In this document: positions 7,350 to 64,000 of the stretch, one piece after another
Layout of the letters: every line of letters starts with the position of its first letter
Numbering within the stretch: the first letter of the stretch is position 1
NCBI RefSeq assembly: GCF_018977255.1
Contig: NW_024704742.1
Coordinates: 95,420,001-95,484,000 of the forward strand
Source: Callorhinchus milii
Taxonomy: Eukaryota
DNA: 64,000 nucleotides
Direction: 5' to 3'
Notes under the pieces: model-generated
What the model was told of the DNA's origin: nothing
Databases searched by the model: none
What the model saw: the letters and a program-made list of their open reading frames with translations, nothing else
Made by a program: the position numbers and the translations under genes

Positions 7350-7713
<364 letters not shown>

Positions 7714-7720
7714 GTCCTCA

Positions 7721-9955
7721 TACTCATTCATATATTCCCACAAAAGGGAAATGTGCGAGAACCAAGCCTGCTTGGATGACCAGGGATATTCTGTCTAGGA
7801 TGAAAAAGAAGAAAATGGCGTACGACAATTGGCGGATGCAAGACACTGAGGATAGCAAAGCGCATTATAGAGAATGCAGGAGTGATCTTAAAAGAGCGAT
7901 AAGACAGGCTAAAAGATCGCATGAGAAGAGGTTAGCGGGTAACATAAAGGGGAATCCTAAAATATTTTATAAGTACATAAAGGAAAAAAGGTTAGTTAAA
8001 GGTAGGGTGGGGCCAATCAAAGACAATGATGGCAATCTTGTTGTGGAGCAGAGGGTGGTAGTTAATGGGTGTTTCTCGCAATGGAAGGAGGTGTGCAGCG
8101 GTGTCCCCCAGGGATCGGTATTGGGACCACTGCTCTTTCTAATATATATTAATGATCTGGATTTGGGCATAGGGAGCACTATTTCCAAGTTTGCAGATGA
8201 TACCAAGGGCATGGCTGATGTACTAAACGAGTACTTTGCATCTGTCTTCACAACGGAAACGGATGCCCCAAATGCCACAGTATTGGATGACAGTGTAGAG
8301 GACATAGATCAGATTACTACAGACAGAGAAGAAGTTCTGAAAAGATTGACTGGGCTCAAAATTGATAAGTCACCAGGACCAGATGGGTTTCACCCAAGGT
8401 TGCTGTGGGAGATACGGGTTCAAATAGCGGAGGCTTTGGCCATTATATTTCAATCGTCATTGGATACAGGAGTGGTGCCAAGAGACTGGAGAGTAACTAA
8501 TGTTACCCCACTCTACAAAAAGAGGCAGAAAGACAAGCCCGGAAATTACAGGCCAGTCAGCCTAACTTCGGTAATAGGAAAGCTACTGGAGACCGTAATC
8601 CGGGACAAAATAAATCTCTACTTAGAGGAACACAAGATAATTAGAGACAGCCAACATGGATTTGTTAAAGGCAAATCTTGCCTAACAAATCTAATAGAAT
8701 TTTTTGAAGAGGTGACTGCGAGGGTTGATGAGGGAAATGCGGTGGACATTATTTACATGGATTTTAAAAAGGCTTTTGACACAGTACCGCATAAGAGGTT
8801 AATAAAAAACTGGAGGCCCACGGTATTAAGGGGACAGTAGCCGTTTGGATTAGGAACTGGCTGAGTGACAGAATGCAGAGGGTGGTGGTTAATGGGTGTT
8901 TCTCGCAATGGAAGGAGGTGTGCAGCGGTGTCCCCCAGGGATCGGTATTGGGACCACTGCTCTTTCTAATATATATTAATGATCTGGACTTGGGCATAGG
9001 GAGCACTATTTCCAAGTTTGCAGATGATACCAAGTTAGGTAGGGTAGTAAATAGTGAAGAAGATTGTGACGGACTGCAGGCAGACATACACAGAATGGTG
9101 GAATGGGCTGACATGTGGCAGATGGATTTCAATGTAGATAAGTGCGAGGTGATACACTTAGGTAGGAAAAATGATAGGAGGCAATATAGGCTTGGTAGCT
9201 CAATCTTAAGGGGGGTGAACGTACAGAGAGATCTGGGCGGTCAAGTAAGCGATTCATTGAAGGTAGCAGAGCAGGTAGATAGGGCAGTAAAAAGCGCATT
9301 TGGTGTACTGAGCTTCATTAGTAGGGGCATAGAGTATAAGAGTAGGGAAGTTATGCTTAATCTGTACAAAACACTGGTTAGGCCTCAGCTGGAGTACTGC
9401 GTCCAGTTCTGGGCACCTTACCTCAGGAAGGATATTAAGGCACTGGAAAGGGTGCAGAGGAGATTCACGAGAATGATACCAGGAATGGGGAAGCTTAGCT
9501 ATGAGGACAGGCTGGAAAAGTTAGGACTTTTCCCATTAGAGCAGAGAAGGTTACGCGGGGACCTGATAGAGGTCTTCAAGATCATGAAAGGTTTCGACAG
9601 GCTAGATAGGGAAAAGCTGTTTCCGCTGGTAGGTGTGTCTGTGACTCGTGGTCACAGTCTTAAGATATCTACCAAAAGAAGCAGAGGGGAGGTTAGAAGA
9701 AATGTTTTCACTCAGCGAGTTGCTAGAATTTGGAATGATCTGCCCGAAAGGGCAGTGAAGTCCGATTCGATAACAGCTTTTAAGAGCGAACTGGATAGGT
9801 GTCTGGAGAAGACAAGTTTTCAGGGTTATGGGGAGAAAGCTGGTGAGTGGGGTTAATAAAAGTCAGTTGCTCTGTCAAAGAGCCGGCACAGATTCGATGG
9901 GCCGAATGGCCTCCTTCTGTGCCGTAACATTCTATGATTCTATGATTCTATGATT
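7721..9955 (+). mobile_element. Young 5'-truncated CR1-clade LINE (ORF2 linker + RT + 3' UTR)
   Basis: ORF2 motifs [56 protein letters not shown]. 3' UTR with GGGCCGAATGGCC and an (ATTCTATG)3 tail at 9929-9952. Only one frameshift (A-run 8804-8809); candidate TSD GTCCTCA at 7714-7720 and 9959-9965. Confidence 0.95.
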
Positions 9956-26325: not shown

Positions 26326-27836
26326 AACAACAACAACAACAACAAGATTCCATTTATTGAGCGCCTTTCATGTCGGGAGGACGTCCCAAGGCGCTGTACA
26401 GTTGGGTCAGGACCCGAGCAGGGGGGAAATGGTCAGGGTGATGGGAGGGAAGGGAGGGAGCGAGGAGGGGGTAGAGAGTCGAGAGGGGAGCTGAAGGCAC
26501 GGTCAAAGAGAAAGGTCTTGAGACCGGCCTTGAAGGAGGAAAAGGAGGAGGCGGCGAAGGCACTGGGGGATAGAGTTCCAGAGCCTCGGGGCTGAGAGGC
26601 TGAAGGCCCGCCCACCGATGGTAGGACGGTTGGGGCGGGGGATGTGCAGTAGACCGGAGCCAGAGGAACGGAGGGTACGGGCAGGTAGGTAGGGGGATAG
26701 TAGGTCGGAGAGGTAGGAGGGAGCAAGGCCGTGAATGGCCTTGTAGGTGAGGATGAGGATCCTGATCCTCTGGGGGATGGGGAGCCAGTGGAGGTGAGCG
26801 AGGGTGGGAGTGATGTGGTCCTGGTGCGCGACAGTACACGAGCTGCAGAGTTCTGAATGACCTGCAGCTTGTGGAGGGAGGTGCCAGGAAGGCCGGCGAG
26901 GAGAGAGTTCCCATAGTCCAGCCTTGAGGTGATAAAGGCGTGGACCAGAGTTTCAGCAGCGTGAGGGGTGAGGTAGTGCCGTAGTCTGGTGACATTCCGG
27001 AGGTGATGGAAGGCGGTGCCAGTTGTGGCGCGGATATGAGGGAGAAAGGACAGCTCAGGGTCGAACAGAACACAGAGGTTCCTGACTGCTTTGAGAGGTG
27101 GAGAGTGCAGCCTTGGATGCTGATGCTGACGTGAGCCAATCAGGAGGGCCTCAGTTTTACGCACGTTGAGCTGAAGAAAGTTATCAGGACTCGATGTCGG
27201 ACAGGCAGCTGTCAGGACATCGGTGGTCATGGAGTTGAGGGTAGAGGAGGAAAGATAGAGTTGGGTGTCATCCGCATACATGTGGAAGTTAACCCCATGT
27301 CTGCGGATGATGTCACCAAGGGGGAGCATATAGAGGGTGAAGAGGAGGGGACCGAGGACAGAGCCCTGAGGGACACCGCACGAGACAGTGCGGGGGCTGG
27401 AGGAAAAGCCGTTAGTAGAAAGACGGTGGGAGAGGTACGACCTAAACCACTCAAGGACAGGGCCTTGAAGGTTTAGTTGGGGGGGGAAAAGCGGTGGAGG
27501 AGGATAGCATGGTCGACCGTATCGAATGCTGCCGATAGGTCGAGGAGGACGAGGAGGCAGAGGGAGCCCTGGTCACAGATGATCAGGAAGTCATTGGTGA
27601 CCTTGACCAGGGCAGTTTCTGTGCTATGGGCAGCACGGAAACCCGACTGAAGCGGTTCGAATAGTGAATAGTTGGAGAGGAAAGAGCGCAGCTGGGAGGC
27701 GACAACTCTTTCCAGGACCTTGGACAGGAAGGGGAGGTTGGAGGTGGGCCGGTAGCTTGATAGCTGCGACGCATCAAGGGAGGGTTTTTTCAAGGTGGGA
27801 GTGATGGTGGCAGTTTTTAAGGGAATGGGAACAGAA
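26326..27836 (-). mobile_element. L2 LINE, 5'-truncated, RT region with several small deletions
   Basis: [69 protein letters not shown]; (GTT)n tail. Confidence 0.93.
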
Positions 27837-40919: not shown

Positions 40920-41588
<669 letters not shown>

Positions 41589-46830: not shown

Positions 46831-49727
46831 GAGCTCCCCCCACTTCTCAGGCATATGATAAAAAAGCATCTTGTGAGCGTTATGATTGTGAGACATGCAG
46901 CACTTTCCCTGATCAGAAAATCCTTATCATTGTTTTATTCCATTTTTCCATAAAAATTCCAAAAATATATTTTTTCCAGAGGATTTGCTTTTGCCATTCC
47001 ATTAATACCAGGAGTCCTTTTCCTGATGTAAATACAATTATGGTAAACACCACAGCATGTACTGCATTCAGTTTAAATGGTCTAAATTCCGTGATGCATT
47101 AATTCACTTCTTCAATGCTCGTCTTGTGTTATTACTCCCTTGCATTTTGTTTGTGCAATTGCGAATTTCCAGACATTACGTATTTCAGCATCATTTCACA
47201 AACACAGCCTCCTGTCTGGACACACTTCATAGAGTTGACCTTTACAATAGATGTCATTAGATGTACCAAATGTTCTTATCAACAAGGACTCTGCAGACTC
47301 AATGAGACTGTAAATTAGGAATTGTATTGCAAATGGATTTTGAGTGTATGTTGGTGATGGGCAAAGGAACCTGTGAAAAGATGGTAACATGTATGGCAAG
47401 TTTAATTGTTTAATCCAGCAGTAACAAAGTTTGAATAATACCTCTGAAGTCATTGGATTGTGTGATGAATGTAACCAGACATCTGCTTAAATATTAAAAC
47501 CTCAGAATACCCTAGTGAAAGCATCCTAACTGTGTTCCTTTTTATAAGCACCAACAAAAAATAAATATTACATTCAATTGACGGAAATTAATTTTAAACA
47601 ATCACTGCAGCAATAAAACTAAGCAATAGGTTGGATTCTGTTTATTTCAAAAGTGTATGGTTTATGTCATTCTGTCATTGGGTAGAGGGGCTGGCAGGCA
47701 TCAGAACGCAATTAAAACAGTTCAGCTCCAACATGTGTACAGGTACTTCCATGCCGTGGAATTCATAATTGTTATGATTATGTGGCACTTAAGTGGACCA
47801 TAAGTTGGACAGTGACTGGTAACAGATTGCTGCAATATATTGCAAACTGTTTGATAGAAAGCTTATTAGAATTAAATATTCCAAAAAATGAAATGGTGCG
47901 GAACTGGAGGGTGGGGAACAAGCCATGGTTTTGTAAAAGCAATCCTGGTCAACATACCAAAACAGCTCCAAAACTTACTTGATTTGTGCTGCAGTTACCT
48001 GACGTTTAATTGCAAATGAGCAGAAAACAGTCTATTTTTGAGCTACAGAAAAAAGAACACAGAATATTTTAATTCCAGCATGTTCTGGTCTCCGAAACAC
48101 CTTCATGTGACTTCTCGACAATGAAATTGAAAAACAAACCAAAAATCTGTCTTATTTTTGCATTACATTATTGCATCTGCCCAGAACTGTGTCCCCTTAA
48201 AAAAAATTGTCATACTTGTAATTTCCTATTCATTCACTGGCTCAGACACTATTAATGGATGTTAGTGGACTATGTATTAAAAATACATATAAAGGGATTC
48301 TTTCAGTGAAATTGGTAAGAGCTGACACGGGATCGCAAAGGTTGCATCCATTGATTATGTAGACATTGTGGTGTTCTTGCTGTGGTTTGAATGTATATTT
48401 ATTGTGTAAAGTAGAAATAGTTAATCACTAAATGTTTTGTTGTTTGGCCTCTGGGAAAGATGAACCTCATAAAAACCAGACAGGCTAAACAACTGTAACT
48501 TTAGTCTTACAAACTTCGGAAAGATCAGCATTTCATATTTATGTGTTAAAAATGATGCCTGGATTGTTTTATATAGTAGTACAGCTCCAACAGTATTGAC
48601 AATAAAGGTGTGACTGGAAAGAACTCTCTTGCCTGGTTATTATCTTGAAAATCTTGAAAATAATTTTATCCTATGAAGCGTTTGAGAAGACTTCCTGACC
48701 AAATGCAATGATTATTATAAAATAAACAGCTATAATCCCATTTCTCTGGTAGGTTTGAGTCTGGACTAATTATATCTCTGTACTCCCATAGTAACCCTGT
48801 TTCATACCAGTGAGAGATCGCTGGATTGAGATTGTTGTTCCAAGTGTAAGATCTGTGTCTTAGCAACCAGTACGAAGCCACTTCAATGAGGTCATCTCAC
48901 ACTGCTTCATATCAGCTGTAACTATCGTGAAGTCACTTATTACAGGTTTATAATGAAAGACGTGTCACTGAAAAAATATTTTAGAAGTAATTACTTCATT
49001 GATTGATTTTATAGGCACCCACACAGTGAGTATTTGTGCCAGCAAGGTTCCACAAACACCCACGAGGCAATCTCCAGCATTGTCGACAAAGTTACTGTGC
49101 GAAATAACCTTCTCATTTTGAATATTGTCAGAGGATCTTTAATGCCCACCTGAACAAGCTGACCAATTTTAGTTTAACATCTCTTCCAAACTGCAGTGCG
49201 TCAGTACATAAATGTCACCTTAAGACTATACAATACAATTTACATTTATATAGCACCTTTCATGTTGGAAGGACATCTCAAAGCACTGCACAATGGAGGA
49301 CAATGCAGCTTTTCACTCGCAACCTTTTGATTCAGAAGCGAGACTAGTACCAACAGAGCCAAGCTAATATCACTCGTTATCTTTGTGATGTTTGTCAGTG
49401 AAGATTTTTTCACTGGTAAGTGGGTGGCATGACTATAAGGAGACAGGCAGAGCTCTGCTTCCCCTCTACTGAATACAGAATCATGCCGAGGTGGTAGTAA
49501 AAGTCAGTGCCAGTGCACATTATTTTAAAGCAGTTGTCCGAGGAAGATAGGAACACAGGAGCAGGAGGAGGCTATTCTGCCCACTGAGCTTGTCCCACCA
49601 CATTAGAGGTTTTTTTATGACAATGCCTACCCTTTGTCAAATAGGGACCTGAAATGTAATCTTCCCAGAGTTGCACCCCCAAGAGAATTGGAGGAAAGAA
49701 CTATTCATGCCAAGAGCAGCAAAAATG

Positions 49728-51500
49728 AACAACAACTTGGATTTATATAACGCCCTCCACACCGGACGGCATCTCAGAGTGCTTCACAGTAACGGATCCC
49801 TGGACCAAGTCAGTGGGATGGGGAGGAAGGTGACCAAAGGCACGGTCGAAAAGAAAGGTCTTCAGCAGGGACCTGAAAATAGGAAGAGAGGGGACGAGGC
49901 GATGGGAGTGAGGAAGGGAGTTCCATAGCCTCGGGGCATAGTGGCTGAAGGCACAGCTGCCGAGGGTGGAGCAGAGGACTCGGGGGACGAGGAGGAGGCC
50001 AGACCCAGAGGAACGAAGGCAACGGTTACTGTTTTGGGGAGCGAGGAGGTCAGAGAGGTAGGGGGGTGCAGAAGAGTGGAGGGATTTGAATACACGGGTG
50101 AGGATCTTGAAGTCGATCCTCTCTGGGATAGGCAGCCAGTGCAGTCTGGCAAGGACTGGGGTGATCGGGGAGCAGAGTTTGGTGCGGGTGAGAATGTGGG
50201 CGGCAGAGTTTTGAATGATCTGGATTTAATGGATGGTAGGGGAGGGGAGGCTGGCGAGGAGGGCGTTAGAATATTCCAGCCGAGAGGTGACAAAGGCATG
50301 GACAGGGTTTCAGCGGCTTTCGGAGAGAGGTATTGGCGAAGACGGGCGATGCGTCAGAGGTAGAAGAAGGCGGTGCTGGTGAGGGATCGGATGTAGGGGA
50401 GGAAGGATAATTGGGAGTCAAACCTGACGCCTAGGTTGTGTACAGATTCGGAGAGTTTTAGGGGGAGGTCGAGTAGGTGGAGGAGGTGAAAGCCGTGAGA
50501 TTTTAGATGTTGACGAGAGTCAAAGAGTATGGCTTCCGTCTTGTCAACGTTCAGCTGAAGGAAATTTGTGCTCATCCAGCCCCTGAGGTCTGATAGGCAG
50601 ACTGACAGAACATCAGGGGACTGGGGGTCGCAAAGAGAGGTGGAAAAATAGAGTTCGGTGTCGTCCGCATACATGTGGAAATGTACCCCATGTCTGCGGA
50701 TGACATCCCCAAGAGGGAGCATATAGATCAGAAAGAGGAGGGGGCCAAGGATGGATCCTTGGGGTACCCCGCAGGTAATCGGGTGAGAGTGGGAGGAAAG
50801 GCCGTTTGTGCAGATGTACTGCTGGCGGATTGTGAGGTAGGACTCGAACCAGGCGAGTGCGGTCCTACTGAGGTGGATGACGGAGGAATGGCGTTGGAGG
50901 AAGATGGCGTGACCGACTGTGTTGAACACCGCGGAGAGGTCCAGGAGGATAAGGAGGCAGAGGTAGCCCTGGTCACAGATAGAGAGGATGTTGTTTGTGC
51001 AGTCTCTGTACTGTGGGCAGGGCAGAAACCGGACCGGAGGGGTTCGAGGAGGGAGTGGGAGGAAAGGTGTGCGCGAAGTTGATTTGGAACAATGCGTTCT
51101 AGGACTTTTGCGAGGAAGGGAAGGTTAAAAATGGGGCAGTAGTGGCTGGGGTTTGAGGGATCTAGGGAAAAATGTTTTGAGGAGGGGGGTGATGACAGCA
51201 GTTTTGAGGGGGACAGGGACTGATCCGGAGGAGAGGGACTGGTTGATGAAGTTAGCCAGTAGTGGGCAGAGGAGGGGGAGCTGGGTGACCAGCAAGTTGG
51301 TAGGGAGGGGGTCGAAGCTGCAGGTGGTGGGTTTCATGGAGGTGATGGTGGGTGAGAGGGAGGAGGGAGAGATGGGGAGGAAGGAATGTAGGATGGGGGT
51401 GCTGGTAGGAGCAGATGATGGGGAGGGTGAGAGGGACAGAGAGGGCATGGTGGTGGGTGATGAGGCAGGTGGATGAGGTTGCCTGGCGGATGTTGTGAAT
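49728..51500 (-). mobile_element. L2 LINE, 5'-truncated and decayed
   Basis: MKPTTCSFDPLPT, LKTAVITPLLK, GVPQGSILGPLLF, MYADDTELY, FLQLNVDKTE remnants. Confidence 0.92.
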
Positions 51501-53274
51501 TTGTGAAAATAGGCTATCTATGCCCTAGGTGCCTTTATTTGTATCCAAAATATAACACTTAGCAAGGGAAATTTAAAAAATCATTGTAATATTTGGATGC
51601 AAAAATACTGAGGTTTCACACAAGTTTTAAACAGCAAAGAATGTATATTTGCACAAAGCAAGTTTAATACAAAAAAAAGTGAGAACAAGCCAGGAAAGCA
51701 GCAATTTTCCTTCAACTGATTCTTAAAAAGGCCAAAAGACAAATACAATTCAGAGAAGTTTTGCAGGTAACTTGGCTCCAAGCAATCGTTCACAAGTCCT
51801 GAGGTAACATTTCCATGTACTAAGTCTTAAATCATCTTATCAGTACACTGCAGCATGCAATACTAAGACTTGGTGTAAACAACATTTGTGAGTCGTCCCT
51901 GATGTATTCCTCTAATCGGGTTAACATTCTCAAACAGTACATTTACATCTAATCCCACTGTAACAGTGCAGAATAAAGAGCCACTTCACCATATACATTT
52001 TAAACTGAGTAAAATAACGAATCGCGAGAGGAAGGAGATTGTGAGATGCAAAAACATTAAAGTAAGTAAAAAAGTAAGTAAACTAAGTAAAAAAAAAACT
52101 CAGACTCGACTTGCTGATTTTCACTCATTTTGTTTTAAAACATGACCAACAATACAATTTTATGCTTAGATTTGAATAGGGCACTTTCACTTGCACCACG
52201 GATAATGTCCTCAAATTCAATTCGAATTATTTTGCTGCAGATCGAGAGGAAACAAATGTACTCATCCCACACTCTGTAAAGAGTGGGAGGAAAAGGAGAT
52301 TGAGGAAAAATAAAACATAATAATAATAATCCTTGCATTTCGTGTAGAGCAAGGATGACATCCCAAAGTCACGGGATATATTGTAAAGTGGTTTGACTGT
52401 GTATCTTGTGGGCAAAATGCAGCAGACAGTATGCAAGCAGTAATGTTTAACAAACAGCCGTGGAGTGAGTGACTAATTAGTGACTAAAAAGGACATTGGG
52501 GCAAATCTCCCTTCTCTTTTCAAATAGTGCCGTGCGATCTTTCACATCCACCTGAACAGGCAGATGGAATCTTGGTTTAACATTTCATCTGAAGGATGGC
52601 AACCTCCGACAATCCAACAGATCTCCACTACTCCATTGGAGTGTCAGCTTGGATTATGTGGACCTTGAACCCAAAGCCTTTTGACTCAGAGGCAAGAGGG
52701 CAAACACTGAACCACACAAATATAGATTAGACAAAAGAAACCAAATAACAAAAAATACATTATATTTATTTATGCAGTAAGGGTTATCTCATTACAGTAA
52801 TACAGATGGGATTCATGTCATCACTGTTCATTGTGAAGTGAAGGAAGGTTGTGCTCCTCATGCATTCTTTTCAAAAATACAAAGGGCTGCTCATTGGTTT
52901 TCCGCCACTGATACAATGCTTTTTGATTGAAAACAATTCACAATTGATGCCTTTTTTTCAATCAAAGTGAGTGGCTGTGGGAGGAGGAGGTTCAGCAGAG
53001 GTTATGTCAACTAAATAGCCTACTTTCGCTAACAAAATATTCAGTCAATTCACTTTACAGTATATTTTGTGAAGCGCATTGAGACGCCTCGAAGGCATGA
53101 TAATATATATCATATATATCAAATGCAAGAATTATTATTACTTTTCCTAGAGTAAAATATAGGTGTATCAACAGAGAGCGGGACATGTTGACTTCTTTCA
53201 GTGCCTTACATTAATTCTAAATTGCCCTTCACGGTCTTGCTCCTCCCTAATTATAATTATAATAATTATTTGGG

Positions 53275-54095
53275 GGGGATAAGTTTGCAGGGTTATGGGG
53301 AGAGCAGGGGAGGGAGATTGATTTGGATAGCTCTTTTAAATGAGCCGACACAGACAGGATGGGCCGAATGGCCTCCTTCTATGCCATATAATTCTATGAT
53401 TCCTTACCTCTGTGACCTATTAAAACGTTACCAACCTGTTCGTTCCCTCCGCTCGCTGGGCACTGCCCTGATCCATATCCCCCGCCTTACTCGCCCCACC
53501 ATCGGCAGTCGGGCCTTCAGCCTTACTTCCCCGCCCTCTGTAACTCCATCCCGGAGCTGCTCTGCCTCACCCCCGCCATGCTTCTTTCAAGGCTCGTCTC
53601 AAGAGTTTCCTCTTTGACAGTACCTTCGGTCATTGCTCCCCTACCCTCCAACCTTTTTGACTCCAATCCCCAGCTCAGGTGCAAACTCTTCAAAAATCCT
53701 CGTCCTCACCTGCAAGGCACTCCATGGCTAGCTCCTTCTGATCTGTGACCTGCTGATCCCATATCAACCTATCTACTCTCTCCGCTCAGCAGGCTGCGAC
53801 CTGCTCTGCGTCCTCCATCTGGCTCACCCCACCATTGGTGGTCGGGCTTTCAGCCTCTCTACCCCCACCCTTTGGAACTCCATCCCACATTCCCTTCACC
53901 TTGCCCCCTTCCTTGCCTCCTTCAAGGCACGTCTCAAACCCTCCTCTTTGACCCTGACTGTCCAGTGCCTTGGGACATCCTTCTGACCTGAAAAGCGCTT
54001 TACAAAGATCATTTTGTATTGTATTATATCCAGCGCCTTGGGACGTCCTCCTGAAGTGAAAGGCACTTCTGTAAATGCAATTTGTTGTTGTTGCT
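53275..54095 (+). mobile_element. Stack of a CR1 3' end (53275-53402) and several L2 3' fragments/tails
   Basis: GGGTTATGGGGAGAG...GGGCCGAATGGCC...ATTCTATGATTC, followed by repeated CCCACCAT.GG..GTCGGGC.TTCAGCC L2 blocks and stem-loop tails. Confidence 0.8.
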
Positions 54096-54317
54096 GTTAT
54101 ACTGCAGTCCCTATCCACTCCTCCTGGTATGCGACTCTTCCCGCCCCAACCCCCATTTTCCAGGTAGTTTCAGACAGCTGATAGTCTGAAAGCTCTCATC
54201 AGGCTTTGGTACTGAGTGAATCCAACAATAACAGGTGATAGTCTGAACAAGCATGAAACTCTTAAACTATACCCATCAATAACACCCCAGGGATGGGACT
54301 CAGGACTAAAACACTCG

Positions 54318-54640
54318 TGGAGTCCTGTAGCTCAGTGATTAGAGCACTCGCTTTGCAAGCGAGGGACCTGAGTTCAATTCCAGGCAGAGGGCGAAACCTT
54401 GGGCAAGTTTCTTTACTCCACACGCCAAATAATAATCCCTCCAAAAACTAAAAACAATAATAAATTGGTCATTTTCAATCTACGACTGTTTGTGGGACAT
54501 TGCTGTGCGCAATTGGCTGCTGCGTTCGCCCACAAATATACAGTCAATTCACTTTACAGTGTGTTCTGTGAAGCGCTTTGGGACGTCCTCCCGACGTGAA
54601 AAGCGCTATATCAAATGCAAGGATTATTATTATTATTATT
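54318..54640 (+). mobile_element. tRNA-Ala-derived SINE, young short subfamily, full length
   Basis: Anticodon arm CTCGC-TTTGCAA-GCGAG (TGC = Ala), A and B boxes, stem-loop tail, (ATT)n. Confidence 0.92.
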
Positions 54641-54899
54641 TGCCCAATGTTGCCATTGCTAGTATTATTATTATTACGAGTGGTGTTTTCAGTGATAAAG
54701 GTGAGACCGTTTAGCGTTTTGGAACTGTTTGAAATCAATTTGGTGAGAGAGCGGGGGAGTGGGGGTGAATTGGGTAGCTCTTTTCAAAGAGCCATCATGG
54801 GCTGAATGGCCTCCTTCTGCGCTGTGTAATTCTATGATTTATGATTGTATATTGGAGGGGTGACAACCTGAATAAAAGGCAAAATTAAAAAAAAACGTG

Positions 54900-55525
54900 C
54901 AAGTGCTTCCCCCTGTCTGAGCTCCCTGTTTCTCCAGCATTGGCCACGGGCCAGTGTGTGGTGGGGCTGCACTGGTCTGGGCTGAAAGTGAATCATGTCA
55001 GACTGAACGCCACAGTCGCTGAGACCACGACCTGAGGCTCTGTTCAACCCAAACAGGTAACAGGCGAGTTACAGGAGGCGGCGGCTTGTTACTGTCTCCG
55101 AGGGCGGAGCTGTGTCCATGGCAGCGCTTAGATACAGAGCTACAGGCACAGGCTGGGGAGAGGCACAGAGGCCGAGGAGCAAGCAAGGCACTCACCCTGG
55201 GGAGAGCCGCTCACCCTGGGAGACCAGGCAGATGCTGACGGTAAGCTGCTGCAACACAATTGGTGATAGAAGACCACATTGAACTTAAAAGAAAAAGATC
55301 TCAGTTGGTTTTCCCCGCTGTCCTGCTGCTGCACTAATGCAAAGCAAGGCTTTCTTGTGCAAACTTTCTCTACATTTTAATGCAGCTTCTTCCGTCTCCA
55401 CTGACGCACAGCTGTTGCTAAGGGATGTGGCATTTGAAAGGGTGGATCGGTGCCGTGGAGGCCGAGTCTGATGCCTTCTTCATTTCCTTTGGTTATTTGC
55501 TTCTCCAGGAGTTGCATGTGTAAGT
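54900..55525 (+). promoter_or_regulatory. GC/CpG-enriched promoter and candidate non-coding first exon(s) of the second gene
   Basis: Local rise in GC and CpG in unique sequence. GC box GGGCGG 55102-55107; X-box-like GTGTCCATGGCAGC 55112-55125 and GTTGCTAAGGGATG 55414-55427; half-CRE TGACG 55402. Donors ACG|GTAAGC (55241) and TGT|GTAAGT (55520). Confidence 0.6.
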
Positions 55526-56095
55526 GTTGTGTACTGGAGTGTTATTGCTGTCTGGTGAGAATTGTCAGCCTGGCTCTGTTGGTGATACTCTCTCTCTCTG
55601 GGGGCCAGTTGTGTCTGGGTTGACACACTAACTCAGCACTGGGACTGCTGCCCATCCAATGTAATGTTAAACTGAGGTCCTGTCTGTCTGATCTTTAGGT
55701 GGACATTGAGGATCCATGACACTATCTCAAAAGAGCTGCCCTCACCAACCAACCTCCAGATAAATTGGCTTGTGTGAAACACAGGTGCTATGGCATGAAA
55801 GGTGCTAAGTAAGTGTAAATTGTTACTGTTGTTCACTTAATGCCTTCTAGTGATAAGTTTATGGTCATATTTGCCCTCAAAGGCAATCACCATACATGAC
55901 AGGGTTGACCTCTGAAGTGTTTTGAAACGTTTGGTAATCTTGGGCTTTATAGTAAATGTAAAGGTGACCTGTTGTATTATTTTGTGTTGGCTGGTGATGG
56001 AAACATAGAAACATTTCTATTTTTGTCAGGATGGCTGCAGGTCAGTTGACATGACTGCTTTTGTTGTTTTTTAATCAGAGCTGCACTGTTTACCT

Positions 56096-56770
56096 ATAAT
56101 AATAATAATAATAATAATCCTTGCATTTGATATAGCGCTTTTCACGTCAGGAGGACGTCCCAAAGCGCTTCACAGAATATACTGTAAAGTGAATTGACTG
56201 TATATTTGTGGGCGAACGCGGCAGCCAATTGCGCAGAGCAATGTCCCACAAACAGTCATGGATTGAAAATGACCAATTTATTATTGTTTCTACAAAGAGC
56301 TGGTCAGCTCAGCATTTATCCACAGGGTAAGACTACTATATTGAACAGACTACACTGTTTTCACTGTTCATGGTGGTGATTTTCCTGATTCACCGCCATG
56401 AACAGTGGATTTTGTGTTCAAATCCCTTCACTTTCCGGCACCTCCCTACCTTTACGATCGCCTCACTCCCCAATCCACCACCCGGCGCCTCAGCTGGACT
56501 GGCACCGGTCTCCTGCTCGTCCCTTGCACCCTCCGCCCCACCATCGGAGGTCGTGCTTTCAGCCCCAAAACTCTGGAACACTGTCCCTCAATCCCTCCAC
56601 CTTGCCCACTCTCTCCCCTCTTTCAAGTCCCGCCTGAAAACTTTCCTCTTTGACCGTGCTTACAGCCACTTCCCCCCGGCTTGGAGTCAGGCTCCGTCAC
56701 TGTTAAGTGCTTTGAGATGCTACCCTGTGAGGAGGGAGCTTTATAAGTACAAGTTCTTGTTGTTGTTGAT
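56096..56770. mobile_element. SINE 3' half (56096-56288, -) and L2 3' fragment (~56403-56770, +)
   Basis: Direct similarity to the copies described above. Confidence 0.85.
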
Positions 56771-57714
56771 TCTTGGTGCTTTTATATCGCAGGAAGTGGC
56801 TCTGCATTAAAGTTACCCTGCGGCTGGACTATGGATTGTATAATATAATTTCACGCTGCCTGCAACAGTGGAAATGGGGGATATGCATGAAGAGGGTGCA
56901 CATCTCTGTTTCTGATGGTTTCTTACTTCTCCTGACATGAAAGATGCTTTATAATTGCAGTTTGTTGTTGTTGACAAGGTGAAACAACAACTTGCATTTA
57001 TATAGTGGCCTTCATGCCGGATGGCGTCTCGGAGCACTTAAACTGACTTCAGTGGCAACCTCTTACCCTCCTTGTGGGAAACCGTGTGAGTTGATGGGCT
57101 TCGGATGCTCCAAAGGCATTTTTTTAGCACGTTACCATTGATAGCGGTACTGTATAACTGGTATTGCAGAATATAGTTGAAACACTGCCCCTCACAGAGC
57201 AGCTGCCCTGCTCGGTAGTTATGTCTTGTTTAGAATATTCTGTATCATGCGGAGCTTCCTGTTGCCTCTTTTATACCAATGGGACCCTGAGGCCCAGTGT
57301 GGCATACATTTAGATCAAAATGTCTTGGTGTTTTGAGCTGCTCGTGTACAGTAATTAGTGTTAGAACTGCAGCTCTTCACAGCACTCCTCACAACAGGAC
57401 ATCTTAAAGCGTGAAATTATGAAGGATCCTTAAGAAGTGATGGCAGATGCTCATGGGTCTCGCCTCTCACACTGCCACCGTTGCTGTGGTAATATTGCCT
57501 GTAACCTTTTGGATTCCTGTGTTTTTTTTAGAACCTAAAATGATTAGGTGTGTATTTCGCGACTATATTTAGTGTAATCAGTTGGTAAAAACTGCATTTT
57601 GGTGTTCATCTCTGTGTGTGGGAGGGGGAGGAGATATTTTACAATTAACTGTTGATCTTTGTTTCAGTTGCTGAATTTGCGAACTAAGGAAGAGGGCAAA
57701 ATCTGTTGTGCAAG

Positions 57715-57738
57715 ATGCCGTTAAATCCTAAACAGGTG
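57715..57738 (+). CDS. Uncharacterised gene, start-codon exon (exon 57668-57738): MPLNPKQ(V)
   Basis: tttgtttcAG acceptor at 57666-57667; AAGATGC start context; in-frame upstream TAA at 57685; phase-0 donor GTG|GTAAGA (alternative CAG|GTGGTA) matches the phase-0 acceptor at 59152. Confidence 0.75.
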
Positions 57739-59151
57739 GTAAGATATGTTTGTGTATTTCCACCTCCCCCGATTTTTTTGCTCTAACGAAAAATGATTAC
57801 TGCAAATAATTGTGTTTGAATTACTAGAAGGTCATTTGGTAGAGACAATAGGACTTACTTTCCCTGTTGCTGTTTTTTGTGTACAACTCCCATTGTTTGA
57901 AATGTTAAGTATGGTGTTTATCTAACAATTCATGTGGATCAGTATTCTGTGCGAGATAAGTGTTCTGTTTATCCTGCAAGTCTATCTTCAAACGGGTGTG
58001 TTTTTCGACTTGAGGTGTAATCAGAAATCAGAACCTTGTTTGAGAAAAAAACAATTTTCCGGGGGTGGGGTGGGGGTGGAGAAATGGTAAGAAAACAGCA
58101 ACTGCAGTTCTCTTTGAAACAACACTTAATTTTGGGATTGAACAGGTAGACTATGAAGTAGACAACCTTTAGATTCCAATGTTCCTAAACATTTTTATTA
58201 GGAGATTCTACGTTCTGATTGTCACAGTGAGCATAATCTAATATTAATTTAATTCTGAAGGAAGTGGTATAGCCCATTGAATTTATTCCTAACCTCGTGC
58301 TATGAAATCTCTCCATCCCTCATGAGCTTCAATATGATACAAATATCACATCAACATGAATAATATGTCAACACTAATCTCTTCAACACTAATTTCTTTT
58401 TTGTTTAATTAGAGCCATCTACTACTTATTAAATGTAGATGTCTTTTCCTTCAATTTATGCTAATGGTGATGTGGGCATATGCTTAGTTTACTGTAGATT
58501 CTCAGAAGCAGGGTTGTCATGTTGAGAAATTGCTGAAAATTATATGCTTGTGTTTGTGGGCTGGGTTCATTGTTCTGGTCTATGAATAAAGCCAATTCTA
58601 GTAATGAACAGCTCAGGATAGATCTGCTAGATCTTTCCAATGCTGCTTTTTGACAAGCGAACTATCTTCTCTCAGGTAGGAGATACGTTTTACTTACGGT
58701 TTTAACGGCCTTCTTGAAAGAAGTACTTTAAATTGAAACAGCTTCCTTCCCTATTTGTTAGCACTGGGATAAAAGATGTAAGCCTGGCTCAGTTGGTAGC
58801 ATTCTTGTCTCTGTGTCAGGAGGTTGTGGTTTTATGTCCCACATCAGGACTTTGAAGTCACAGTCTAGGCTGAGCCTGGGGCAGCACTACATTGTGGTCA
58901 TTTTCCTTCAGGTGAAACATTCAACAGAGGTCCTGGCCAACAATTCACCAAATAAAATTGATCAGGTTCTGTGATCAGAAATTTGTGATCAGAAACATGG
59001 CTGTTTGTGTATTCTTGCTGATTGCAAATTGGCTGCTACATCCAGTTACAAATAGTCACCAATAAATCATGTGAAGCACTTGGAGATATATCAATATCAG
59101 ATGTGATAAGGCACTGTATCATATTTAAGGTTCATCTCTGATATTTTTCAG

Positions 59152-61921
59152 GTGGAGCCTTTAACTGCAAGGACCTTGAAGCGCATAAATGCTGAGACCG
59201 TTTTAGAAACTGACACTCCACGCACTAGTGAGCTGAAGACTCTTCGAATAAAGCGGTTGGCCTACTTTGTTCCTGAAAAAGAGCATTGCCAACGTAGCTG
59301 TATCTCTGCATCCCTTCCTCCCAGGCTCCAGATCGGTAGCAATCCAGGAATTCCCGATAATAGAGTGGGAGATCCTCTAAAAGATAAATTGGCAAAATAT
59401 GAGAAAGAAGGCCTCTCTGTTCAGGAAATACTTAATTCTAATGAATCAGTTGAACAAATTGTAGTTGGTGATACAGAGAAGTCCCATTCTACCAGTTCAG
59501 AGCCATCATCAGCAACGGCAAAGAGTCACCTTAGAAATGCTTGCTTTCCTGAGCCAGATTATAACCTACTTGAGGATCCCATGGTTTCAGAGAACCAAAA
59601 GCTTACACACATTCTCAACTGGGCTCAGAATATTCTTAGGAAGTCCGATGAATGTAGGGATGAAGCAAAGAGCAGCAAAATGTCTCAAAGAGCTTGTCGG
59701 TCTCAGTCTAATGAGGAAGTGCCAGCACTGAGACGTGAGTGCTGTGATGGAGAGCAATCAAGAGCTTCACTTTATCGGTCTTGGGATATTGATGGAAGGA
59801 CCACCGCTGATCTTTTCAGCAGCCGAGTGGATGCTTCTCATTATTCTGCTGATATTTCCAGTTTGTCTAATAACTACTGTTCATCCGAGATTTCGAGATC
59901 AAGCCATACATTTCTTCAAACTGACTGCTTAACTGCAGGTTCGATCGACGAGGTGGAACAACATGCACTGACACATAGTGGAGGTTTAAATAGGCGCCAG
60001 TGGTTTTCTGGGGCAGGTGAGACTGAAAAGTTGGAAAGAACAATTCCTAAGCAAGATAATATATATGGAGGTAGTATTCCAAATAAGGACTGTAAAACTG
60101 AAGGCACAGCGGAGATTCACGTCCATGCAACTCTGTCCGAGTACCCAGCAGATGACGACTGTCATTCTGTCACTGGTGGTGCAGGCACAGAGAATAATAA
60201 TGAATATTTTTGGGTACCACTCGAAGATAATTCAGATGAAGAAGACACCAAAGGAGGTATGGAAAGAAAGCAAATGATTGTGCAGCCTTTTGTGAACAGT
60301 AATCAGTTGTGTAATGAGAATTATGAAGAGTCTGTCTTATCGACAGGACCAGCAAAACCTAGAAAATCTTCCGTCAAGTATTGTTACACTTCGTCTGATC
60401 TATCAGCAAGCCCACTTCAACTAAATAATGTTGCACAACACAGCACATCAGCTGTTGGTAATAATAAATTACCTTTTTATGCATGGGAAGCCACTGCGGG
60501 AGATTGCTTTCTAGGTAATTACAATAAGCCTTCGGCGGAACATTCAAAAGCTGCTGATCCTCCTGATCTATCACTAAATCTTCAAGATGCTACTGACTGG
60601 GATCCATCACATAGCAATACTTATTGTGCATTTAACTTTGAATCACGGAAGGATTGGTCTGTTGTTCCCAAACTAGATCTTTCAACCCTTTACAGAGGCC
60701 CAAGCTTAAGTTGCGATGAAACATTGCCAGTGACTGCTAAGGACACGTGGAGAACTTTCACAGTCAGGTCACTGAGTGAAGAAAGAAGGTTAAGCTGTGA
60801 AGATTGGGAAAAAGTAGATATGAAACAATACTCTGAAAGAATGAAAAATTTGAGTATTATAAATGCAGATGAAACACGAGTGTTAAACAGCAAAGGCACT
60901 GAGAAGACATTGTCTTCAGAAAATGATCCATTGCAAAAAGAAGTAAACCATAATATTGACAAAAATGAAGTTCAGCAAAGCCTAATTGAGCATAAGGTAC
61001 ATAATAGACCACTAAATGTGCTGACTTCAACCTTTCCATCATGCTTGTCACCGTCTTCTAATTCCAGCTATTCAAAAGATCCCAGTCTACCTTTCCAAAA
61101 AGAGAAGTTTATTAACAGAGAGGAACAACCCAATGCAGATTGCTCTTCCTTTGTTGGAAGTGACCTGGTTAAGTTCTGCCCAGAGTGCTTAAGTGGTAAT
61201 GACCCAAATATTAACTGGTGCATGGAGTGCGGATGTGTTCTTATTGGGATACTAACTCGGCAATGTCCCGTTTCTACCAATGTTGCTGAAATATCATCCT
61301 TGATTACGAGACAGAGCCCCGAGAAAGAGAAACTAGATGTGCTAGTAAAAGGCAGCCTAAGACCCTGTTCAGAATTTGTGAGACCGGACAATATTTACGA
61401 CTTGAAATGTTCCAAGACTTTCACTTGCACTTCCTCGGGTGAACGGGAGCTCCGTGTGTATGAGAATTATCTTCTCTACAGTCAACCTCTAAAGAAATTC
61501 TCAAACCAACACCAGGCACAAAAAGAACAACAACCTATAGATCAGCATCTGGTGAATGAACAAGGGAGTCGGACAGATGCATTGAATGGAAACAGTAAGA
61601 GACACAAAGCCAAAGAGAACTATGCCACCTCATCGTCTGAGACCTCCACTCTCAGCTCTGACCTTATTGACCTGCGATCTGAAGACAAATTAGGCAGGGG
61701 AGCTGCACCTTTGACAGGGAATACAGATGAATGCTGTGTTGTACAAAGTTTTTCAGTGCTAGAGAATCATCCACAGGGAAAAGATTATTTTGAGAAACCA
61801 ATCTATAAAGAAACATCAAAGGATCCAACCCACAAAGCTTTTTTGAAGCAAGCCTTTGGAACTTTGAAGGATGAAACTGTGACTTGTACAGGCCATGAGA
61901 AGAAAAAAGGAAATTTGAAAG
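59152..61921 (+). CDS. Uncharacterised gene, 2770-nt internal coding exon: Ser/Glu/Asn-rich, probably disordered, with one zinc ribbon (FCPECLSGNDPNINWCMECG)
   Basis: atttttcAG acceptor directly before the ORF; more than 920 codons without a stop in repeat-free sequence. Donor AAG|GTAGTT at 61922 (phase 1); after it the ORF-track translation becomes intron-like (Phe/Ile/Tyr-rich). Confidence 0.88.
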
Positions 61922-63078
61922 GTAGTTATTTAATAATTCAAGGTTCACTGTGTTTTATTTCCCTTATTCCCCAGAAACGTCATATGTTTTACTTCATGAT
62001 ATTTCTTTGCTTTGAAGTGCTCCCATCAGATATTAAGTTCACCCACAAAATTACAATGAGCAGGTATGTCAAATGCAAGAAATATTATATTTTTATTTAT
62101 AAACATTGTGACGTTTTAGTGGAATGACTTGGGTGGACTACAAAGCTGAAGAAAGAAGGGCTTGCTGGGTTGAATGGCTTTTATGTTGTTATTTCAGAGA
62201 TGTTTTCTTTTGCTTTATATTCTCTGAACAACCAAATTTATCCCCCAAATTCTCATTAAATGGGTACCATGGCAGAATACTATTAATTGGAGTAATAATA
62301 AAATGATCCTTTTATTTTATATAGCACCTGTCACATTGAAACATCTCAAGTGTTCATAGAGTTTTCATATATTTGTCGGCAAATGTGGCAGCTAATGTAA
62401 AAACAGCAATGCCCCACACAAAGTTATAATGTGAATAATCAATTTTATCTGGAGTATTGTAAGTCACCATCCCTGGAGAAACTCGCATCTCTTTTCGAAT
62501 AGTGCAGCAGGATCTGTCATCCACCTGAACAGCCAGATAGGACATGGGTTTATCATCTTATCCAAATAAAGACACCTTCAGGATGTAGTGCTCCCCAAAA
62601 ACTTTATTGGAGTATCAGACCATTTTACTAATAGAGCAATACCTGGAGAGTTTGGAAGCTTGGCCAAATGATTGATGTGCAAAGCAGAAAAATACACTGG
62701 AGGCATGAGTGTTAAATATTTGAGTGCTGATTCCAAATGCACTCCCAAAATTCATTGCGTTGTTTGTAGGATATTGGTTGTATAAATTAGCTGCCGTGTT
62801 TGTCTACATAAAAAGCACTCAATTAATTTCTAATTAATCAATCTCATTCTGTAAAGTGCTTTGAAACGTTTCTTTCATGTGAAAGACCTTATATAAATGT
62901 AAGTGGTTGCAGTTTGCTAGGGATAAGTCCTTTGTTGGAGCAAAGTAATGGAAGATTACAGTGGGATTTGATCTGAAAATAGCTCATTTAGGGTGTTTAA
63001 ACAAAATGCTGTATATTTTTGAAGGAACCTAGAATTGTTTTTGTCCTCATAAAGCAAATTAGATTTTTGTATTACAAG

Positions 63079-63199
63079 ATACAGATGTAACGCCAGTGAG
63101 GAGAAAAAGCATCCAAGCCAGCCTGAAAAGGCACAAAAGATACTGGGAGAAGTCCAGTATTGCATGGTCATCCTACACACACGGAGAAGTAAAACCACG
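63079..63199 (+). CDS. Uncharacterised gene, next exon: (DT)DVTPVRRKSIQASLKRHKRYWEKSSIAWSSYTHGEVKPR; gene continues beyond the window
   Basis: Two in-frame phase-1 acceptors (AAG|63079 and CAG|63085) and a strong donor ACG|GTAAGG at 63200; open in the frame set by the previous exon. Confidence 0.82.
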
Positions 63200-63293
63200 G
63201 TAAGGGATCCTGTTGACTTATCTGATCTGCAGTGCTGGACCCACTCATCACTGCAGCAGCATTACATTGAATCTATTGACATAATGATCATAA

Positions 63294-63495
63294 AATAATA
63301 ATCCTTGCGTTTAATATGTACGTTTCACAACAGAATGTCTCAAAGCGCATCACAGGTTTTACTGCAAAGTGTAGTGACTGTTTATTTGTACAAAATATAC
63401 AGTCAATTCACTTTACAGTATATTCTGTGAAGCGCTTTGAGACGACTAGAAGATGTGAAAAGCGCTATCAAATGCAAGGAAGGATTATTATTATT
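63294..63495. repeat. Two SINE tails in inverted orientation forming a near-spacerless palindrome
   Basis: Minus-strand tail ~63294-63385 and plus-strand tail ~63390-63495 meet at TTTGTACAAA. Confidence 0.85.
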
Positions 63496-63577
63496 TGTAG
63501 ACAAATGCACAGAGAATGTATATTTTTGAAGGTGCCCTATCAGCTCATTGTGTCTGAGCCAGCTCCCTTAAGAGCAT

Positions 63578-63760
63578 AAAAACAAAACCCAGATGCTGGA
63601 AATCTGAAACAAAAACAGAAGTCGCTGTGAACACTCAGCAGGTCAGGCAGCATCTATGGAGAAAGGAAAGTGAGTCAACTGAGTTCTGACGAAGGGTCGT
63701 GGACCCGAAACGTGGACCTGGACCTGCTGAGTGTTTCCAGCGACTTCTGTTTTCGTTTCC
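63578..63760. mobile_element. Palindromic Penelope-type non-autonomous repeat with a hammerhead-like core (older copy at ~6290-6480)
   Basis: Inverted arms 63606-63644 and 63721-63759 pair at 36 of 39 positions; internal CTGACGA-A-GGGTC-GTG-GACCC-GAAACG. Confidence 0.7.
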
Positions 63761-64000
63761 CTTAACAGCATTCCTTTCAGTTCCATTTACCTGCCCTTAC
63801 CCCTTTTTTTATGACGCTGACTCTTTTTAAGCTTTTATCAAGTTCCCTCTTGAAGGCCAATTTGTCTCAACCACTGATCCCAGCAGGGTATTCTTGTCCT
63901 AACTACTCTGCAAGAAAAAAATTCTCCTAACTTCCCCATTTGCTCGTTTACTAATACTGTTGAAGTCTCTTTAACCGGACGCTGGTTAACCTTGGACGTT

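Follow-up and report, generated by a model that had tools for sequence, protein, structure and literature searches.

A gene that runs off the end of a 64,000-nucleotide (nt) stretch of Callorhinchus milii DNA (RefSeq assembly GCF_018977255.1, contig NW_024704742.1, positions 95,420,001 to 95,484,000; here called the window) encodes an F-box/leucine-rich repeat (LRR) protein of an old and nameless animal family. Judging from sequence and structure models, we lean, with some reserve, toward a reading in which its product is an FBXL-type substrate receptor of SKP1-CUL1-F-box (SCF) ubiquitin ligases that would dock p97 itself and thereby couple ubiquitylation to extraction. The product of its large exon is a 99% match to XP_042202810.1 (LOC103187373 of C. 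milii), a 1347-residue RefSeq protein labeled "uncharacterized," and the part outside the window is known from that protein, not from DNA. The gene is real and already predicted in RefSeq, but unstudied. No description of the family was found in the literature outside most subscription papers and supplements (supplementary expression tables could list the loci), no paper mentions any of 12 orthologue locus identifiers, and no paper joins RASEF, FRMD3, and F-box. An earlier description of this DNA from its letters alone (the original prediction) had supposed that the gene may be unannotated, which proved wrong, as RefSeq calls it uncharacterized in many species. The same prediction recognized no named protein; the protein is indeed nameless, but its kind is recognizable. 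Positions below count from the first letter of the window, and all features are on the forward strand.

F-box and leucine-rich repeats

The F-box/LRR identity is secure, as judged from profile matches and models. Pfam places an F-box at RefSeq residues 950 to 994 (PF12937, 44.8 bits with a cutoff of 24.3; PF00646, 33.3 bits with a cutoff of 20.5). The F-box-like match has an E value of 1.1e-11, above the curated cutoff, and the RefSeq protein has Pfam LRR matches as well. An AlphaFold2 model of an 825-residue turtle orthologue, built on a 49-row alignment, has the F-box and 14 repeat strands with a predicted local distance difference test score (pLDDT) of >90. The closest fold match of this model is FBXL2-SKP1 (E value of 2.5e-16), with FBXL2, COI1, and FBXL17 at the top, and the closest solved chain by sequence is FBXL2 (E value of 1.9e-27), over the LRRs only. 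The F-box is conserved as strongly as the LRRs. Because an F-box and about 14 LRRs lie beyond the window, we read the product as an FBXL-type SCF substrate receptor with a mostly disordered N terminus of ~1,080 residues. This is the folded C-terminal domain for which the original prediction had proposed to look downstream.

FBXL2, FBXL20, FBXL17, and SKP2 share with this protein an F-box that leads directly into an LRR solenoid, FBXL2 being the best match in both sequence and fold. The gene differs from them in the ~1,080 added N-terminal residues, with a candidate p97-binding helix, a zinc finger, and a Trp motif, and from FBXL2 in having only 24% identity in the fold alignment and its own locus beside RASEF. 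In the ESM Atlas, the first match of residues 780 to 1347 is a cluster named "rasef" (151 F-box proteins), which is probably this F-box family, followed by generic FBXL clusters. Models of 340 to 427 residues with only the F-box and LRRs occur in sharks, crocodilians, and lampreys (P0011, P0159, P0160, P0326, P0328, and P0333); these could be either genuine short isoforms or annotations that were split.

Candidate p97-binding helix

The most conserved island of the N-terminal region is h-R-x-[KR]-R-L-x-Y-[FY], which reads LRIKRLAYF in the shark and LRxKRLAYF in the family. In the window, it follows a TP site (DTPRT..LRIKRLAYF, 59212 to 59268), and a helix near the terminus is predicted at exon-product residues 23 to 39 (pLDDT of 84 to 92). 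The original prediction listed the adjacent VEPLTARTLKRIN among its ordered islands, which is less conserved, and missed this one, the best. In a 62-row alignment, whose rows were selected for intact N termini, no columns other than R40 and R43 are invariant. The motif lies within the first 200 residues of 82 of the 135 family proteins and is absent from the remaining 129,448 residues; shuffled sequence gave 2 occurrences per 3.1 million residues. It was found in 65 of 71 records other than those of teleosts (5 of 37) and squamates (1 of 14).

This island resembles the VCP-binding motif (VBM), for which the available part of PMC5389986 gives the consensus EhRRRRLxhh. Ataxin-3 has the VBM core EELRKRREAYF, and p97 residue Y143 is required for VBM binding, according to the available part of PMC10950897. 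A relaxed form of the consensus, E/D-h-R-x-[RK]-R-L-x-h-h, is matched by 28 of the 30 motif-bearing nonvertebrate rows, several of which were placed by the tree only. Core identity to ataxin-3 is 6 of 11 residues in the shark and up to 9 of 11 in one relative, and the Pfam ataxin-3 model (PF16619) is matched by the motif region of one orthologue among five motif-bearing proteins (E value of 0.028). As in ataxin-3, UBE4B, HRD1, and RHBDL4, a short Arg-rich helix lies near a terminus of a ubiquitin pathway protein and is predicted to use the same cleft. In the available part of PMC5559722, the VBM carriers are a deubiquitinase, U-box and RING ligases, and a protease, none of them a cullin-RING substrate receptor. 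The ELM database has 3 VBM instances. The patterns of two other p97-binding motifs, the VCP-interacting motif (VIM) and SHP, were absent from the five proteins checked.

A complex model of shark residues 20 to 55 with a stand-in p97 N-domain scored 0.86; the best of three controls scored 0.00. Its runs agreed in at least 93% of contacts, with a partner pLDDT of at least 66. Among microbial complexes, 51 of 78 solved and 2 of 108 mismatched ones reach the score mark; among eukaryotic complexes, 39 of 65 solved and 2 of 126 mismatched ones do. In the model, and only there, the helix occupies the cleft that separates the N-domain lobes and contacts Y143. Its contacting residues L39, R40, K42, R43, L44, Y46, and F47 are conserved, and those of p97 are, in human numbering, 33 to 38, 52 to 56, 70, 72, 141 to 143, and 175.

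Several observations weigh against p97 docking. None of the 63 vertebrate motif rows, shark included, keeps the acidic residue before the hydrophobic one, in which the vertebrate copies differ from the VBM carriers, and all 63 have [ST]P at most 12 residues upstream, which suits a cyclin/cyclin-dependent kinase reading. A second VBM consensus in the available part of PMC5559722, PsiRXXRXXR, does not fit, every row having Tyr or Phe in place of its third Arg; the ataxin-3 peptide shown in the available part of PMC10950897 departs from it likewise. The scarcity of the motif in teleosts and squamates fits loss and incomplete 5′ models equally, and its persistence in placental records without F-box or LRRs is at odds with obligate coupling unless those records are partial. 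As for the model, the p97 N-domain came from a metagenome contig (L065; E value of 6e-110 to a solved p97) rather than from the shark, the calibration of the tool excludes peptides, the prediction ran without alignments of our own, and none of the three controls was a scrambled peptide or another basic helix. The model is also like VBM and VIM complexes that are already solved (5EPP and 3TIW), so its pass may be memory; for that reason, it shows likeness, not binding.

Separately, contigs of giant virus metagenome-assembled genomes carry intact, intronless, protist-like Cdc48/p97 genes (L001:1673-4054, L002, and L003:1706-4063), which may reflect viral capture or binning contamination.

Proposed mechanism and alternatives

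In the mechanism that we propose, the C-terminal F-box and LRR solenoid, evident in both sequence and model, would form the receptor end of the chain. By analogy with the FBXL family, the F-box very probably recruits SKP1-CUL1-RBX1, with the LRRs holding the substrate. The LRxKRLAYF helix is predicted to sit as a VBM in the N-domain cleft of p97 (VCP) at the end of a long flexible tether, a step that we hold to be on the probable side. The ligase would then bring along the segregase that pulls the ubiquitylated substrate from its complex. More speculatively, the zinc finger, the Trp motif, and the vertebrate hairpin may be further docking sites for substrate, ubiquitin, or location. If the p97 link is true, the VBM built into such a receptor would give SCF a direct route to p97, and the hook is specific and cheaply testable, for example, in Xenopus, which keeps a full-length copy. 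If it fails, this would be an ordinary nameless FBXL gene, and the annotation value remains.

The alternative that survives best, although unlikely, is that the basic motif of an SCF receptor serves as an RxL site for cyclin docking, coupled to the TP phosphosite, or as a nuclear localization signal, and does not bind p97. The vertebrate rows, all with the upstream [ST]P and none with the acidic residue, argue for it, and a K-x-L with aromatic residues after it agrees with the RxL pattern. Outside the vertebrates, however, just 9 of the 30 rows have [ST]P, and the VBM consensus fits 28 of them; RxL motifs also bind in extended form, whereas the segment here is predicted to be helical and passed the p97 complex model.

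It is less likely again that the protein is not a ligase but has a structural role in cilia, centrosome, or germ cells, as an LRR protein with a vestigial F-box. FBXL13/DRC6, which works in the axoneme, would be its counterpart; the long disordered region has RPxSA repeats in the five proteins checked, repeats that may have a link to cilia, and no arthropod or nematode name appears among the relatives listed. An F-box that scores above the Pfam cutoff and is conserved like the LRRs weighs against a vestige.

We give slightly less weight still to the idea that the first 40 residues, the hairpin at residues 131 to 170, and the helix at residues 769 to 792 cofold or dimerize as a docking unit for another partner, the VBM likeness being incidental. 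These islands are kept together from lamprey to bats and have unusually high pLDDT (84 to 92, 92 to 97, and 79), but the predicted template modeling score is 0.35 and the hairpin is undetected in nonvertebrates, where the basic motif is strongest. That the gene is a divergent orthologue of a named human FBXL protein is very improbable: partial models are automatically named FBXL20-, 7-, 2-, or 4-like and the tree has no named paralogue, but those names conflict, the FBXL2 match (E value of 1.9e-27) covers the LRRs only, the 22 proteins found with a bat query include no human or mouse entry, and the locus is beside RASEF.

Family distribution and apparent decay in mammals

A search with residues 800 to 1347 gave 123 proteins at E values up to 1e-30. 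The 120 matches listed come from sharks, rays, bichir, sturgeon, gar, bowfin, teleosts, coelacanth, amphibians, turtles, squamates, alligator, marsupials, three placentals, amphioxus, a crinoid, and molluscs. Nearly all are named uncharacterized or hypothetical, with a few automatic "-like" names, and no search returned a full-length match to a characterized gene. Lampreys, the jellyfish Sanderia, Macrostomum, Paragonimus, Owenia, and Watersipora came in with a profile search against 1.84 billion representatives; of 10 additions looked up, 6 had names. The original prediction of an ancestral vertebrate gene was right as to age but not as to origin, as the family reaches jellyfish, flatworms, an annelid, a bryozoan, molluscs, a crinoid, and amphioxus. 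A germline "FBXL4" expansion in hagfish was considered as a relative, and no link to the F-box gene was found in the available part of PMC10972751.

Vertebrates carry a single copy of the gene. A tree of the F-box/LRR region was built from 109 of 149 rows, 40 having been dropped for covering <230 profile positions, and rooted at the midpoint; in it, all 33 vertebrate rows group together with a support of 100, broadly in the order of the species tree. The deepest rows are not proven orthologues because no named paralogue is among the rows and the root is a midpoint.

The bat query, which covered the 7999 best candidates of 426 to 1358 residues, found its 22 proteins in elephant, bats, moles, horse, cheetah, sloth, anteater, and marsupials. 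The matches listed in this search and in that with residues 800 to 1347 include no primate, rodent, or bird name. The F-box/LRR region is whole in 3 of 5 marsupial records; in the 18 placental-type records, it is whole in 2, partial in 7, and absent in 9. In these placental records, the Trp motif has eroded and the zinc finger has decayed or disappeared. Those records that are truncated may reflect partial models or short isoforms. Loss in mammals, as the original prediction suggested, thus holds in part: the gene is apparently missing from some, and marsupials and some placentals still have it. Loss in human and mouse is likely, judging from the records, and no more than likely because truncated records may be partial and the search was of protein records, not of mammalian genomes.

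Taken together, these data suggest, as a tentative account on which we stay somewhat doubtful, an FBXL family predating bilaterians that combines an SCF receptor, its own VBM, and an NZF-like finger in one chain, kept from jellyfish to bats, with modules (finger, Trp motif, and LRRs) then lost in therians and the gene gone in primates, rodents, and birds. If the product is a ubiquitylate-and-extract adaptor, this dismantling and loss would be why work on human, mouse, and fly never met the family. The gene would then add an overlooked member to the F-box inventory of animals and illustrate how a gene can decay stepwise in mammals.

Other features of the N-terminal region

Most of the exon product is predicted to be disordered, 755 of 923 residues having a pLDDT of <50. 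The original prediction of a mostly low-complexity S/E/N/K sequence was right about disorder but overstated the bias, which is mild (S+E+N+K, 34%). The ordered islands are the helix at residues 23 to 39, the hairpin at 131 to 170, the zinc finger, and the helix at 769 to 792. All peptides quoted in the original prediction are present; one of its islands, VVPKLDLSTL, is confined to cartilaginous fishes across eight alignment rows. The hairpin (DYNLLED...KLTHILNWAQNIL, 59557 to 59637; pLDDT of 92 to 97) occurs only in vertebrates, from lamprey to bats, with no match below an E value of 0.01 in 40 nonvertebrate rows. It has no specific fold match; a wide fold search with the N-terminal model peaked at a Z score of 4.8, with generic helices. 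A YFWxPLxxSSDEE island (60205 to 60243) is conserved in the alignment at a pLDDT of <50, and the helix at residues 769 to 792 (61456 to 61527; pLDDT of 79) has the consensus SVLEKYxxYxxxLxKIR across alignments. The ESM Atlas gave no usable match for residues 1 to 200, and a PDB sequence search with the first island and the zinc finger gave chance matches only.

The zinc finger (61171 to 61242; pLDDT of about 90) is a single Cys4 ribbon, C-x2-C-x3-N-x6-C-x2-C, with a putative RanBP2/NZF-like fold. It has the Cys spacing, including the Asn, of the fingers of NUP153, NUP358, TRABID, and TAB2, and its modeled backbone overlays those of NUP153 and TRABID with a root mean square deviation of 0.6 to 0.7 Å over 24 to 25 residues, but at E values of 0.8 to 1.2; fold-match E values to such fingers are 0.45 to 3. 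RanBP2/NZF fingers have a Trp before the first Cys, and ubiquitin-binding NZFs have a Thr-Phe pair after the second. The shark finger lacks this Trp and has Leu-Ser in place of Thr-Phe; several frogs have x-Phe. There is no Pfam zf-RanBP match, and the DZR match (E value of 4e-4, 21 bits) is below the curated cutoff of 27.3. DZANK1 combines a double zinc ribbon with ankyrin repeats, and the likeness to it lies in this weak DZR match; we rejected membership, as the shark protein has one ribbon and no Pfam ankyrin match.

The Trp motif RYWEKSSIAWSSY, which begins at 63138 in the coding exon at 63079 to 63199, is kept from a jellyfish-clade record and molluscs to turtles. It is not ordered in the turtle single-chain model (pLDDT of 26 to 34), and its docking on the LRRs is unsupported there.

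Gene structure and transcript evidence

The exons at 57715 to 57738, 59152 to 61921, and 63079 to 63199 have GT-AG ends and join in frame into 971 codons without a stop, in agreement with the three in-frame exons of about 970 residues originally predicted. The 2770-nt exon, which encodes the mostly disordered region, lies in a 1005-codon open frame; the maximum in 200 shuffles of positions 57001 to 64000 was 205 codons. Four runs were mapped as contigs, none of them recorded as RNA, and the evidence of transcription consists of spliced contigs from two studies; tissue and expression level are not readable from contigs. One X1 contig (3325 nt) maps to 55698 to 55808, to 59151 to 61918 ungapped, and to 63076 to 63201, skips three introns, and bears out the junctions that the original prediction had proposed to check. 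Its 70-nt gap after 55808 and before 59151 fits the first coding exon inferred from it, 57668 to 57738, with the ATG at 57715, and the RefSeq protein begins with the same peptide. This layout speaks for a donor at 57738 and an acceptor at 63079; the acceptor at 63085 and the donor at 57735, although in frame, are without contig support. The contig carries 250 nt more beyond 63201, so the transcript runs on, and it agrees with the RefSeq C terminus in that respect only. Six single-base differences separate the contigs from the window, 4 residue-changing and 2 silent, too few for a selection test.

The X4 contig, from the second study, joins 55240 to 55699. The X1 and X4 joins therefore imply at least two 5′ untranslated region (UTR) exons, one at 55057 to 55240 (covered by another X1 contig over 55057 to 55239, with GT at 55241 and an uncertain true 5′ end) and one at 55699 to 55808 (contigs of X1 and X4; AG/GT ends). 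At 55057, which is preceded by AG, this other X1 contig carries 499 further upstream letters that are unmapped on 52000 to 64000, possibly another exon upstream or read-through from the upstream gene.

RefSeq cuts a 411-nt in-frame GT-AG segment (60458 to 60868) from the large exon as an intron. This segment is retained in the X1, X2, and X4 contigs and has homologous residues in other sharks. Since contigs cross or enter it and sharks conserve it, a retained form of about 1484 residues exists; a minor spliced form may stand alongside, and the segment is possibly an exitron or an annotation artifact.

Neighborhood and repeats

The upstream gene has FERM_M and FERM_C exons, with its last coding exon at 40993 to 41588 (open frame). 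The original prediction placed the new gene 3′ of FRMD3; the FERM exons agree, and the upstream gene is presumably FRMD3. It also saw neither RASEF nor IDNK features, and indeed no EF-hand, coiled-coil, or Rab Pfam match was found; RASEF identity was rejected, RASEF being a fused neighbor in two predicted models. The Acanthochromis orthologue is filed under "rasef," and the Myotis model and one further model splice LRR exons of the F-box gene onto RASEF. Such models, mislabeled or fused, recur in databases (P0166 to P0170, P0199, and P0201). The RASEF side of the proposed FRMD3-RASEF synteny is thus seen indirectly, the locus adjoining RASEF in a bat and a teleost. The best explanation is an F-box gene between the FERM gene and RASEF whose modules were shed in teleosts, squamates, and therian mammals.

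Broken reverse transcriptase frames of a long interspersed nuclear element lie within the FERM gene at 7656 to 9856, presumably CR1-like, and fragments near 26400 to 27800 and 49700 to 51500 are presumably L2-like. Both 5′ UTR exons are flanked by an inverted pair of 192-nt repeats (54449 to 54640 and 56101 to 56292; 96% complementary); such pairs can promote back-splicing or RNA editing. An Rfam scan of 41000 to 64000 gave a single match, tRNA-like (54325 to 54387; 38.2 bits), which lies beside a high-copy repeat and is probably the head of a tRNA-derived short interspersed nuclear element.

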